From Candidatus Bruticola sp. (GTDB lineage: Bacteria > Vulcanimicrobiota > Xenobia > Xenobiales > Xenobiaceae): 64,000 bases of DNA. The stretch lies in NCBI GenBank assembly GCA_051874735.1, contig JBJEGD010000026.1:91452-155451 (forward strand), in the 5' to 3' direction. The notes beneath the pieces are model-generated. The model made no database searches. It was given only the letters and a program-made list of their open reading frames with translations, and was not told where the DNA came from. How positions within the stretch are numbered: the first letter of the stretch is position 1; each line of letters opens with the position of its first letter. Position numbers and translations under genes: made by a program. This document shows, piece after piece, positions 23,199 to 24,677 of this stretch.

Positions 23199-23229
23199 AA
23201 AAAAAGAGCCCCCCTTCAGGGGAGCTCCC
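23199..23229 (-). terminator. Rho-independent terminator after small-protein copy 1.
   Basis: GAGCTCCCC…GGGGGGCTC stem followed by T7 on the minus strand. Confidence 0.6.
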
Positions 23230-23253
23230 TATTAGTTAGCCGCTAACTACAGA

Positions 23254-23526
23254 CTAGCTGCGAATGTACTCATCCCACTTGCCAAACATCTTGTCCTGGG
23301 TTTTGGCGCGGTTCACAGTTACATCCTGCTGGATCTCGAAGATCTTAGTCTGGGTGTCCTGGAGGATTTTCCAGCGTTCCATCTGCTGCTTCTGAGCATC
23401 GGCCTGCATCTGGGTGTAAATAGTTTGCGCCTGCTGAAGGTCACTGGCAGTCATTTGAGCTGCGGACGCTGCGGCTGCGAAACCGCCACCACCTAAAAAG
23501 TTACTTATACCACCGAAAATACCCAT
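23254..23526 (-). CDS. Small Gln-rich helical protein, paralog 1 of 3 (90 aa), unknown family.
   Basis: The ATG lies 8 nt after GGAGG (internal Met of the track ORF). The C-terminal 70 aa are identical to paralog 2. Confidence 0.7.
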   Translation of the reverse strand: MGIFGGISNFLGGGGFAAAASAAQMTASDLQQAQTIYTQMQADAQKQQMERWKILQDTQTKIFEIQQDVTVNRAKTQDKMFGKWDEYIRS

Positions 23527-23567
23527 TGTACTTACCTCCATAAGGTAAAATTTTTTTTCTTGCCCCT

Positions 23568-23596
23568 AGTATCACGTGTACAATTAAAAAAGTAAA
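23568..23596 (-). promoter_or_regulatory. Sigma70-like promoter for paralog 1 (TTTACT-N17-GATACT).
   Basis: -35 and -10 hexamers with a 17-nt spacer about 40 nt upstream of the start. The same architecture precedes all three paralogs. Confidence 0.5.
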
Positions 23597-23734
23597 GACT
23601 TCTTATAGAAAAAATAATTTTTTTATATATTTGATAAAAATATTAAAACAATAGATAAATATCAGATTAAGAAGCAGAAACAGCTAAGTCCACGTCTTTG
23701 CTGATGCCTGGCAAATTTCATTTAAATATAAAAT

Positions 23735-23768
23735 GTGCTCCCGTCCTAAGGGCGGGAGCACATTTTTT
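23735..23768. terminator. Hairpin terminator after paralog 2, bidirectional.
   Basis: GTGCTCCCG…CGGGAGCAC 9-bp stem, followed by T6 on the plus strand and a U-rich stretch on the minus strand. Confidence 0.55.
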
Positions 23769-23798
23769 CAGTTATTCTTAAACGTTTGAAAGATCAAA

Positions 23799-24071
23799 CT
23801 AACTGCGGATGTACTCATCCCACTTGCCGAACATCTTGTCCTGGGTTTTAGCGCGGTTAACGGTCACATCTTGTTGAATTTCGAAAATCTTAGTCTGGGT
23901 GTCCTGGAGGATTTTCCAGCGTTCCATCTGCTGCTTCTGGGCGTCGGCCTGCATCTGGGTGTAAATAGTCTGGGCTTGCTGAAGATCACTGGCTGTCATT
24001 TGAGCTGCAGACGCTGCGGCAGCATAGCCTCCTCCGCTGAACATACTGGTTAAATTGCTTAGAATACTCAT
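23799..24071 (-). CDS. Small Gln-rich helical protein, paralog 2 of 3 (90 aa).
   Basis: ATG preceded by GGAGGTAAATAAAAT. The protein is MSILSNLTSMFSGGGYAAAASAAQM…KWDEYIRS. Confidence 0.7.
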   Translation of the reverse strand: MSILSNLTSMFSGGGYAAAASAAQMTASDLQQAQTIYTQMQADAQKQQMERWKILQDTQTKIFEIQQDVTVNRAKTQDKMFGKWDEYIRS

Positions 24072-24117
24072 ATTTTATTTACCTCCATAGGAGAAAAAAA
24101 TTTATTTATTTGATAAT

Positions 24118-24146
24118 ATTATCAGCTTATTTTTATCTGTAGTAAA
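24118..24146 (-). promoter_or_regulatory. Sigma70-like promoter for paralog 2 (TTTACT-N17-GATAAT).
   Basis: Hexamers and 17-nt spacer seen on the minus strand. Confidence 0.5.
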
Positions 24147-24328
24147 TGGATATTTATTTAAGGATAATAAAGCAAAACTAATGAATTCATTAATATAAAC
24201 AAGCAAAGAAAAACTGCCCCCAAACTTCGTTAAGGAGAGAGGGCAGTCTATCTTAGATTTATCCTATATGGTAGAGATAAATTTTACGCTTAAACCTAGA
24301 AGCGATTCTGTCAGTTAGTTCCTTTTGA

Positions 24329-24601
24329 CTAGCTGCGGATGTATTCATCCCATTTACTGAACATTTGGTCCTGGGTTTTAGCGCGGTTAACGGTAACATC
24401 TTGTTGAATTTCGAAAATCTTAGTCTGGGTGTCCTGAAGAATCTGCCAGCGTTCCATCTGCTGTTTCTGGGCGTCAGCCTGCATCTGGGTGTAAATAGTT
24501 TGGGCTTGCTGAAGGTCACTGGCTGTCATTTGAGCTGCAGACGCTGCGGAAGCATAGCCTCCTCCGCTGAACATACTGGTTAAATTGCTAAGAATACTCA
24601 T
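24329..24601 (-). CDS. Small Gln-rich helical protein, paralog 3 of 3 (90 aa).
   Basis: ATG 8 nt after GGAGG. Three substitutions relative to paralog 2 in the conserved core (K to Q, K to Q, G to S). Confidence 0.7.
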   Translation of the reverse strand: MSILSNLTSMFSGGGYASAASAAQMTASDLQQAQTIYTQMQADAQKQQMERWQILQDTQTKIFEIQQDVTVNRAKTQDQMFSKWDEYIRS

Positions 24602-24648
24602 AGTGTTTGCCTCCATTAATAAGAGTTTCAGAGCTTTCTCTTATTGAA

Positions 24649-24677
24649 ATTATCAGGGCAACAAAATAGCGCGTAAA
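24649..24677 (-). promoter_or_regulatory. Sigma70-like promoter for paralog 3 (TTTACG-N17-GATAAT).
   Basis: Same architecture as the other two paralogs. Confidence 0.5.

Follow-up and report, generated by a model that had tools for sequence, protein, structure and literature searches.

What are the three small genes that lie in tandem in a 64,000-nucleotide stretch of DNA from Candidatus Bruticola (the whole stretch is called the window here), and what might their products do? Candidatus Bruticola belongs to Xenobia, a class without cultured members that occurs widely in animal guts, sludge and soils. An earlier note on the window had described three same-strand genes of 90 amino acids, each with its own expression signals, and proposed an unrecognised family of small structural proteins. 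We find that the three genes belong to a Xenobia (phylum Eremiobacterota) protein family that has not been described before, and are separately transcribed, dispersed copies of its main member.

All three open reading frames are present on the minus strand (Table 1). The open reading frame listing gives copies 1 and 3 five extra 5' codons, from an upstream ATG; since this ATG overlaps the GGAGG, the 90-residue start is likelier. A GGAGG ribosome-binding site precedes each gene at the spacing of 8–10 nt reported before. The separate promoter claimed for each copy is also borne out: TTTAC-N16-18-GATAMT has exactly three matches in the window, one 5' of each copy, against 0.21 expected from shuffled sequence, and none of 100 shuffles reached three. 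The leader from promoter to gene is about 40 nt in each copy. Xenobia homologs carry a conserved upstream motif, TTTAC-N17-GATAAT, in many cases with a G at −14. A sigma-28 promoter was rejected because this motif is sigma-70-like, and the three copies have near-consensus sigma-70-type promoters. Hairpin terminators had been assigned to copies 1 and 2. Both are found, although the restriction to these two does not hold, as copy 3 also has one, the weakest of the three by z-score. Promoter, ribosome-binding site and terminator are kept across the homolog genomes, from AT-rich to GC-rich ones. The promoter and terminator analyses support the description of monocistronic genes with strong signals, and high expression of the three copies may be predicted from these sequence signals alone. 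Rfam and tRNA scans of the window gave no RNA elements.

Table 1. Features of the three 90-residue genes (window coordinates).
Feature	Position	Strand	Remarks
Copy 1 CDS, MGIFGG...EYIRS, 90 aa	23254..23526	-	family HMM 157 bits
Copy 2 CDS, 90 aa	23799..24071	-	exact match to NCBI MAG protein ACI376_05815 (Candidatus Bruticola sp.)
Copy 3 CDS, 90 aa	24329..24601	-	4 substitutions vs copy 2
Copy 1 ribosome-binding site, GGAGG	23535..23539	-	8 nt 5' of ATG
Copy 2 ribosome-binding site, GGAGG	24082..24086	-	10 nt 5' of ATG
Copy 3 ribosome-binding site, GGAGG	24610..24614	-	8 nt 5' of ATG
Copy 1 promoter-like site, TTTACT-N17-GATACT	23568..23596	-	motif also upstream of Xenobia homologs
Copy 2 promoter-like site, TTTACT-N17-GATAAT	24118..24146	-	motif also upstream of Xenobia homologs
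Copy 3 promoter-like site, TTTACG-N17-GATAAT	24649..24677	-	motif also upstream of Xenobia homologs
Copy 1 intrinsic-terminator-like hairpin and U-run	23203..23230	-	-25.8 kcal/mol, z = -3.2
Copy 2 terminator-like hairpin, 16 bp, GC-rich, U-rich tail	23730..23766	-	-27.8 kcal/mol, z = -6.9
Copy 3 hairpin and UUUUU, ~80 nt past stop codon	24206..24254	-	-30.8 kcal/mol, z = -2.7

Copies 1 and 2 encode the same amino acids from residue 17 to the end. Counted by the Nei-Gojobori method over the last 70 codons, they differ by 20 synonymous and 0 non-synonymous substitutions (dS 0.89); the corresponding counts are 26 and 3 for copies 1 and 3, and 13 and 3 for copies 2 and 3. Values of dS among the copies thus range from 0.9 to 1.8 with 0–3 amino-acid changes over 70 codons, and dN/dS over whole genes is 0.04–0.06. 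Purifying selection on the copies is strong, as had been concluded from the identity of copies 1 and 2 in the face of synonymous divergence. The three changes reported for copy 3 are, relative to copy 2, K53Q, K79Q and G82S in the last 70 residues; A18S lies farther upstream.

The 90-residue protein has no Cys, no WxG motif and no hydrophobic segment, in agreement with the earlier note, and it also has no Pro or His. Its N-terminus is uncharged, Gly/Ser/Ala-rich and variable in sequence over 10–28 residues, the first charged residue being at position 29. Most homologs have only about 10 residues ahead of the conserved helix, and the N-termini of the family show no Sec signal. Type III export signals are typically uncharged, sequence-variable N-termini without a Sec signal. 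The N-terminus is followed by a single continuous helix of about 65 residues, almost invariant in sequence across the class, and the C-terminus reads ...YIR(S/G). AlphaFold2 likewise models one continuous helix, over residues 3–89, with pLDDT >80 from about residue 40, which agrees with the small helical protein first proposed. Profile positions 40–78 are conserved all around the helix and show no clean heptad pattern. Such all-face conservation would be easier to reconcile with a subunit that has packing partners on every side than with a simple two- or three-stranded coiled coil.

No entry of Pfam, NCBIfam, PADLOC, PHROGs or the PDB matched the family significantly, so that its description as unrecognised stands. 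Public data contain 273 word-index matches and 435 profile matches to it. Each genome carries 3–5 copies, and other genomes have 2–4 of them in tandem. Core identity across Xenobia has a median of 78% (185 distinct homologs). A profile search of genome contigs confines the short form, which is 78–90 aa in Xenobia, to Xenobia-type MAGs, while three Acidobacteriota loci hold longer or atypical forms. With such matches, dN/dS of 0.04–0.06, 20 synonymous against 0 non-synonymous differences, and expression signals conserved from AT-rich to GC-rich genomes, the reading of the three genes as chance ORFs or repeats, which only their small size favors, is already refuted and retains practically no probability.

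Outside Xenobia, the domain spans about 60 aa and forms the C-terminal module of TIR, trypsin-TIR-TPR, VgrG, membrane and secreted proteins. Many of its architectures and gene contexts there are non-flagellar. In 123 of 156 cluster representatives the domain occupies the extreme C-terminus. In the VgrG proteins P0160 and P0275 this position is the spike tip. The presence of the domain on VgrG spike tips and on Sec-exported proteins indicates that it can work outside the cytoplasm. Conversely, its fusion to TIR domains, presumed to be cytoplasmic, indicates that it is not intrinsically an export module. The module resembles the effector-associated domains of bacterial conflict systems in being a terminal unit of this size, but no Pfam or PADLOC model matches it, and the free-standing, multi-copy Xenobia form is far more conserved than the fused forms. 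A defence-system component was rejected, as the PADLOC matches were limited to the TIR and trypsin portions of a single fusion protein; a phage origin was rejected, with no relatives in IMG/VR and no PHROG family.

The three window copies lie outside any type III export cluster. Together with those of 15 related genomes, they are found between a BamB-like propeller/BamA/Skp/Lpx cluster and fabI. A fourth Bruticola paralog, P0112, sits just after the flagellar type III export genes, and in most Xenobia genomes one family copy stands at the end of this cluster, which suggests that the protein may be exported as a so far unrecognised subunit of the flagellum or of a filament. The gene order, recorded in 21 loci, is fliM-fliN-fliO-fliPQR-flhB-flhA, an interval of 0–3 kb, a gene that we call u105, one to three short copies, a paralog of 129–295 aa and a paralog of 215–533 aa. 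It is kept despite widely varying G+C, flanking genes and insertions, and the flagellar cluster lies upstream of u105 in 21 cases among the loci that extend that far. The search of related genomes for co-occurring neighbors that the earlier note had advised yields flagellar export genes and u105 beside the orthologs. However, the synteny also takes in genes that clearly have no connection to flagella, Lon and RNase H among them, and the module of u105 and short copies is distant from flhA in three loci (L023, L033 and L081). The flagellar linkage could thus be partly historical.

The flagellar cluster runs from flgB through flhA and includes fliK. Its FlhB has an intact NPTH switch site and its FliG keeps the RDD torque-helix motif, and the export machine looks functional as judged from these genes. 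The gene u105 is always immediately 5' of the first short copy, also at loci without flhA in the vicinity. Its product is a small acidic helical hairpin in an AlphaFold model built from an alignment of database homologs (pLDDT 85), and no relation to the 90-residue family was found. The longer paralogs carry the same C-terminal domain as the short form (HMM E-values 1e-6 to 1e-18); axial proteins of type III systems also have terminal helices in common. The region upstream of the first short gene is enriched in a GTT[ATC]ACA repeat (13 observed vs 0.63 expected, P = 2e-13), which recurs upstream of flgB in the two loci long enough to include that gene. The dispersed copies are without it.

We propose, tentatively and at somewhat less than even probability, that the family protein is abundant and self-assembling, is exported as a late substrate by the flagellar type III apparatus, and forms a filament or its coat, the partner role going to u105. 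The u105 protein would hold the short protein before export; once exported by the flagellar-type apparatus, the latter would polymerise through its helix. Any filament made of such single helices should be far thinner than a flagellin filament, which measures roughly 20 nm. The two types of longer paralogs may serve as minor adaptor or cap subunits, and bulk subunit would come from the additional, strongly promoted copies, as it does from multiple flagellin genes in other bacteria. This proposal draws on the strong constraint (dS 0.9–1.8 with 0–3 changes) together with all-face helix conservation, the 21-locus flagellar gene order including P0112, and an export machine that looks functional. 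It is also consistent with paralogs that share a C-terminal domain like type III axial proteins, the invariable position of u105, the uncharged and variable N-termini, the repeat shared with flgB, the tandem monocistronic copies each with strong promoter and terminator, and the domain on VgrG spike tips and Sec-exported proteins elsewhere. Several observations argue against it. AlphaFold predicts one helix and no needle-like hairpin; no homology to flagellin, hook, needle or HrpA is detectable; the synteny extends to unrelated genes, with the module uncoupled from flhA in three loci; and the domain is fused to presumed cytoplasmic TIR domains. Late flagellar genes use sigma-28 consensus promoters, in contrast to the sigma-70-like promoter of this family.

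A needle- or pilus-like structural subunit was among the first suggestions, and the flagellar export genes that precede the fourth Bruticola copy and the orthologs in 21 loci support it indirectly; membership of the known needle or HrpA families does not hold. Pfam HrpA_pilin (PF09589) scored 21.5 bits, under the gathering cutoff of 25, and was matched by only 6 of 36 family members at E <= 0.1. With reference sequences entered by hand, hhalign gave a probability of 0.6% against HrpA and, for the short form, 0.1% against six needle (SctF) sequences; no needle protein was among the PDB matches. Both families were rejected on these grounds. Like the SctF needle proteins (PrgI, MxiH, YscF) and HrpA, the protein is about 80 aa, all-helical and without a Sec signal, has a highly conserved C-terminal part and a variable N-terminus, and is encoded beside a type III export apparatus, here by the paralog or ortholog after flhA. 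A small acidic helical partner adjoins it, as YscE/YscG do YscF. Unlike them, it is modelled as one helix, with no proline and thus no helix-turn-helix with a P-x-x-P turn; the apparatus is flagellar (FliG, FliK, FlgB/C, FliO) and not an injectisome, and the family has several copies scattered through the genome. For the nanocompartment or spore-coat subunits also suggested, gene context gives no support.

The resemblance to flagellin (FliC/Hag and multi-flagellin loci) lies in tandem genes that are each transcribed from their own promoter to their own terminator, in a helical polymerisation region under strong purifying selection, and in genomic association with flagellar genes. As in FlgK, FlgL and FliC, a terminal domain is common to the paralogs. 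In contrast, the family is 78–90 aa, where flagellin has 250 aa or more, and has no sigma-28-type promoter. Neither Flagellin_N (PF00669) nor Flagellin_C (PF00700) matched it at E <= 10, and phmmer with Hag and FliC queries entered by hand found nothing in 77 loci (1.24 Mb), a weak negative for canonical flagellin in Xenobia. A flagellin-like N-terminus, the 'INTN' start of a 247-aa paralog, was rejected as Bruticola-only and without statistical support. The axial-protein motifs Flg_bb_rod and Flg_bbr_C gave no Pfam match, and a relationship to the Xenobia hook protein was rejected at an hhalign probability of 0.1% against the hook alignment. Ca. Eudoremicrobium taraoceanii, of the same phylum, is reported to have canonical flagellin, FliD, FliS, FlgK/L and MotAB (PMC9259500). 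This argues against a filament made of the short protein, since a canonical filament may also exist in Xenobia.

Other small proteins were compared as well. The pair of u105 and the short protein is reminiscent of type III chaperone-substrate pairs (FliS-flagellin, YscE/YscG-YscF), as u105 is small, acidic and helical and is encoded directly upstream of the first family copy. Braun lipoprotein Lpp is likewise a small helical protein, presumably abundant, with strong promoter and terminator, and the window copies adjoin outer-membrane biogenesis genes. However, the family has no signal peptide or lipobox and no heptad regularity, and Lpp was rejected because there is no Cys, the conserved helix of most homologs begins after only some 10 residues, and the C-terminus is not Lys. 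WXG100/Esx was rejected from the absent WxG motif, the single-helix model and the lack of a Pfam match, and the Rip1 pore because its PDB match (E = 0.25) disappeared once the family profile was used.

The short protein could instead be a cytoplasmic coiled-coil factor of flagellar assembly or regulation working with u105, such as an export-gate partner, an FlgM-like anti-sigma or secretion-checkpoint protein, or a motor scaffold. Its place after flhA beside a small helical partner, the missing signal peptide, the domain on TIR proteins and the cis motif common to the flgB promoter region and the first copy would all suit such a factor. We nevertheless consider it unlikely, since 3–5 copies per genome with strong promoter and terminator are unusual for a regulator, conservation on all helix faces exceeds that of anti-sigma factors, the dispersed copies lack the shared motif, and FlgM (PF04316) matched neither the short form nor the longer paralogs at E <= 10. 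A similarly low probability is given to a general self-assembling helical protein, that is, a non-flagellar cytoskeletal, envelope or stress scaffold, whose position after flhA would be inherited order and whose window copies would reflect a cell-envelope role. The Bam/Skp/Lpx-fabI neighborhood of the window and 15 related genomes, the three uncoupled modules, the unrelated syntenic genes and the varied contexts outside Xenobia speak for it. Yet the order of flhA, u105, short copy and paralog persists in 21 loci of varied G+C, flanks and insertions, with the flagellar cluster upstream of u105 in 21 cases; the motif links the first copy to flgB; a periplasmic envelope role would call for a Sec or lipoprotein signal, which is absent; and among the genome contigs searched the short form was found only in Xenobia-type MAGs, the Acidobacteriota forms being longer or atypical.

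Less probable than either is an effector or toxin-like role for the domain, with secretion through the flagellar type III system in Xenobia and, as VgrG fusions, through type VI elsewhere. The C-terminal domain of P0160 and P0275, the extreme C-terminal placement in 123 of 156 representatives, as in polymorphic toxins, and the uncharged, type III-signal-like N-terminus agree with delivery of this kind. Conversely, no immunity-like gene is adjacent and nothing lies between the tandem copies, the extreme conservation is the opposite of toxin diversification, the hydrophilic helix has no enzymatic or pore-forming signature, and TIR and trypsin fusions place the domain alongside effectors rather than in the effector position. 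Returning to the exported filament subunit, its most specific form, in which the Xenobia flagellar motor and export apparatus, perhaps those of a second flagellar system like that of Ca. Eudoremicrobium, make an external filament from a single-helix, non-flagellin protein of 78–90 aa, with u105 as chaperone and the longer paralogs as junction or cap proteins, is itself rather improbable.

Family members, u105 and the fusion proteins are all annotated as 'hypothetical' at present. Even if the filament reading is wrong, a new, extremely conserved family and its partner u105 have been defined, along with a helical module, also new and some 60 aa long, which in other phyla is fused to TIR, trypsin, VgrG and membrane proteins. 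If the protein is exported and polymerises, Xenobia would possess a flagellar-type machine with a filament or coat subunit non-homologous to flagellin or needle protein. This would bear directly on the evolution of type III filaments and on innate-immune recognition of flagella, since the protein has no TLR5-type flagellin epitope. A filament of the 78–90-aa protein would be a third bacterial solution to the rotary/type III filament, beside flagellin and the needle protein.

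The three tandem genes of the window had been described as encoding 90 residues each, and the open reading frames are real; the only correction is that they lie on the reverse strand. As the earlier note claimed, GGAGG stands 8–10 nt upstream of every ATG, and the proteins contain neither Cys nor WxG. They also have no Pro or His, and position 29 holds the first charged residue. From residue 17 onward, copies 1 and 2 have the same protein sequence. Their final 70 codons are separated by 20 synonymous and 0 non-synonymous changes (dS 0.89), which agrees with the purifying selection proposed earlier; copy 3 shows 13–26 synonymous changes there versus 3 replacements. 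The promoter assigned to each copy was likewise recovered, with TTTAC-N16-18-GATAMT found exactly three times in the 64 kb, once upstream of each gene (0.21 expected). Terminators had been attributed to copies 1 and 2 only. Both are present, but copy 3 has one too, each gene ending in a stable hairpin and a U-run. A mechanical ORF caller adds five codons (MEVST/MEANT) to copies 1 and 3; since the upstream ATG lies within the GGAGG region, this extension is probably not used.

Positions of the features discussed (L-numbers, fetched genomic loci carrying the family; P-numbers, individual proteins)
Feature	Locus or protein	Positions	Strand	Basis
Copy 1 CDS, 90 aa	window	23254-23526	minus	ORF listing
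Copy 2 CDS, 90 aa	window	23799-24071	minus	ORF listing
Copy 3 CDS, 90 aa	window	24329-24601	minus	ORF listing
Five-codon extensions, copies 1 and 3	window	23527-23541, 24602-24616		
CAAG(A)n element, example	window	23545-23567		
Outer-membrane biogenesis block	window	24854-36458, 36661-50597		
u105 genes	L010; L004; L081	9486-9803; 9561-9923; 10001-10387		
GTT[ATC]ACA repeats	L072; L023; L024; L038	1060-1150, 19250-19300; 2635, 13636; 19175; 5821		
Same-domain paralogs, 455-533 aa	L022; L025; L024	10764-12164; 11275-12642; 10349-11950		
Group II intron reverse transcriptases	L072; L078	20060-20822; 10852-12108		
baeRF-family genes	L001-L003; L078	16839-17987; 8695-9897		
Domain-bearing examples outside Xenobia	P0142, P0160/P0275, P0139, P0152, P0136, P0184-P0260			
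Proteins with the ~90-aa N-terminal domain	P0125-P0127, P0148, P0155, P0212 and others			
Fusion gene with the ~90-aa domain	L075	1344-1862		

The genes are flanked on one side by fabI, ACPS and U32 and on the other by an outer-membrane biogenesis block. This block contains a propeller of the PQQ type (BamB-like), a BamA of 1030 aa that carries POTRA domains, a pair of OmpH/Skp-like genes and LpxC-FabZ-LpxA-LpxB; therefore, the organism is a lipopolysaccharide-bearing diderm. The position of the short copies is common to 15 related genomes.

The suggestion of an unrecognised family was borne out: no library (Pfam, NCBIfam, PADLOC, PHROGs, PDB) recognises the proteins. Copy 2 exactly matches a protein annotated as hypothetical in a Candidatus Bruticola MAG. 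All 273 matches of a word-index search are annotated 'hypothetical' and come from Xenobia (the uncultured class that holds Bruticola), Xenobium, UBP9, Eremiobacterota or Vulcanimicrobiota MAGs, together with some bins that are evidently mislabelled. A scan with one genome per species gave 60 loci, nearly all in Xenobia-type MAGs and three in Acidobacteriota. Members are usually 77–81 aa long, with a median core identity of 78% (185 distinct sequences). Profile positions 40–78 (…RWKILQDTQTKIFEIQQDVTVNKAKTQDKMFNKWDEYIR) are almost invariant across all helix faces, and a clean heptad period of hydrophobic residues is absent from the helix. AlphaFold2 with 36 homologs predicts a single continuous helix (residues 3–89), with confidence >80 in the conserved C-terminal half and low confidence at the N-terminus.

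For the short, free-standing form, the sole Pfam match was a sub-threshold one to HrpA_pilin, a lead that fails because it is confined to 6 of 36 members and the hhalign probability is 0.6%. Needle proteins (hhalign 0.1%) were rejected, as was membership in WXG100, FlgM, Lpp or a multi-copy flagellin, needle or Hrp-pilus family. NCBIfam, PADLOC and PHROGs gave nothing meaningful, sequence and profile searches of the PDB gave nothing, and viral contigs held no relatives. By function, the closest analogues are the needle or Hrp-pilus subunits of type III systems, together with their small chaperones, and loci with several flagellin copies. In one lineage (L022, L024, L025), the middle of the long paralogs has a 'AKDPNNAEMKAYRDKLTEYSL' / 'QLAKDPNNAEMKAYRDKLTEYSL' stretch resembling the conserved needle-protein turn region. 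This stretch gives E = 4e-5 against PrgI in pairwise BLASTP, but an hhalign probability of only 16%; PDB phmmer returned nothing. The apparent likeness is a weak lead.

Bruticola has a fourth paralog (P0112, 92 aa) elsewhere, directly 3' of a flagellar export cluster. The same arrangement occurs in 21 loci, mapped by local HMM and phmmer searches plus precomputed Pfam annotation: flgB-flgC-fliE-fliF-fliG-fliH-fliI-fliJ-SLT-fliK, a 272-aa FlgE/G-like protein, fliM-fliN-fliO-fliP-fliQ-fliR-flhB-flhA, 0–3 kb of other sequence, u105 (a small acidic protein, 87–136 aa), one to three short copies, a 129–295-aa protein and a 215–533-aa protein. The last two terminate with a diverged version of the family domain, preceded by low-complexity regions; these longer paralogs and u105 have no Pfam or NCBIfam matches. 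Unannotated and found in the same MAGs only, u105 always immediately precedes the first short copy, and its AlphaFold model, a helical hairpin with an acidic tail, has no specific structural match. FlhB keeps the NPTH switch site and FliG the RDD motif of the torque helix, as interpreted from E. coli FliG; by these motifs the export machine looks functional. Group II intron reverse transcriptases (RVT_1 + GIIM) are inserted just 3' of short copies in two unrelated genomes, and bacterial eRF1-like (baeRF family) genes lie near solo family copies in Xenobium-type genomes.

Most short copies, in AT-rich and GC-rich genomes, share CC-TTTAC(T/A)TTT-N13-(G)TGATAAT-N6-CAAG(A)n, followed after ~30 nt by GGAGG. 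The putative promoter resembles that of sigma-70, with features of an extended -10 element, and does not follow the sigma-28 consensus. CAAG(A)n, kept 6–7 nt after the -10 element, lies at the likely transcription start and 5' leader, and could be a leader element that influences translation or mRNA stability. GTT[ATC]ACA repeats ~11 bp apart precede the first copy after u105 in many lineages (13 observed vs 0.63 expected, P = 2e-13) and flgB in the two loci that extend that far (3 and 1 occurrences vs 0.04 expected); they are absent from the window copies. This common motif suggests that the short copy and the flagellar operon are co-regulated. The repeats, with spacing like TTAA-N7-TTAAC, also occur 5' of several unknown genes for low-complexity proteins, and are a possible operator for a regulator of flagellar genes.

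An exhaustive profile search returned 435 cluster representatives; in 123 of the 156 examined, the domain lies ≤5 residues from the C-terminus of a longer protein. Partners include VgrG (Phage_base_V + Gp5_trimer_C), Trypsin_2 + TIR_2 + TPR, ~9 other TIR proteins, membrane proteins with multiple passes, ~15 proteins whose N-termini are of Sec or lipoprotein type, and a recurrent unannotated ~90-aa N-terminal domain. No Pfam or PADLOC model covers the ~60-aa family domain. The genomic contexts of the non-Xenobia fusions show no link to flagella. Given these partners and contexts, the module is a general helical unit, probably self-associating, with a role on either side of the cytoplasmic boundary. 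The ~90-aa domain ('VVELxGPxFxxSAxxIAxKL..GS..EL.V') is joined to the family domain in ~20 representatives of 145–180 aa, and one such gene lies between dprA and topA.

We tentatively propose that the short form is an abundant subunit that the flagellar type III system exports and that polymerises as a filament or filament coat; we infer each step, from 'linked' to 'exported' to 'polymerises'. Six features are together best explained in this way: a helix conserved on all faces, multiple monocistronic copies with strong signals, an N-terminus that varies, carries no charge and lacks a Sec signal, a small helical protein as dedicated partner, a terminal domain common to the paralogs, and a near-universal place where a complete flagellar export cluster has its distal end, the two having a cis motif in common. 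However, the protein has no homolog among axial or needle proteins, the predicted model is a single helix, the promoter is not sigma-28-like, the synteny also includes unrelated neighbours, and the u105-short module is uncoupled from flhA in 3 loci. A role in the cytoplasm, as a factor for flagellar assembly or regulation, is unlikely; a flagellum-independent scaffold or envelope protein is similarly doubtful, and a secreted effector domain very improbable.

A further point against an exported subunit is the canonical flagellin of a relative, Ca. Eudoremicrobium taraoceanii (Eremiobacterota; PMC9259500). Its Scaffold_18 carries canonical flaB, fliD, fliS, flgK, flgL, fliW, csrA, motAB, fliA and flgHI (the L and P rings), and Scaffold_78 a second colinear fliI…fliP…flhA cluster like the Xenobia-type one (PMC9259500 supplementary file 6); it appears to encode two flagellar systems (PMC9259500). 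The phylum thus does contain canonical flagellin. No flagellin-like ORF was found in the fetched loci, whose 1.24 Mb represent little of each genome. A non-flagellin filament on a flagellar motor, a much more unusual reading of the family, seems quite unlikely.

This hitherto undescribed family is real and under strong selection. It has a conserved partner protein and a conserved linkage to flagellar type III genes, and we class it tentatively as a type III-associated helical subunit. Its domain has the look of a promiscuous module, so far undescribed, for adaptor function or oligomerisation, of which the Xenobia short form is the free-standing, far more constrained version.
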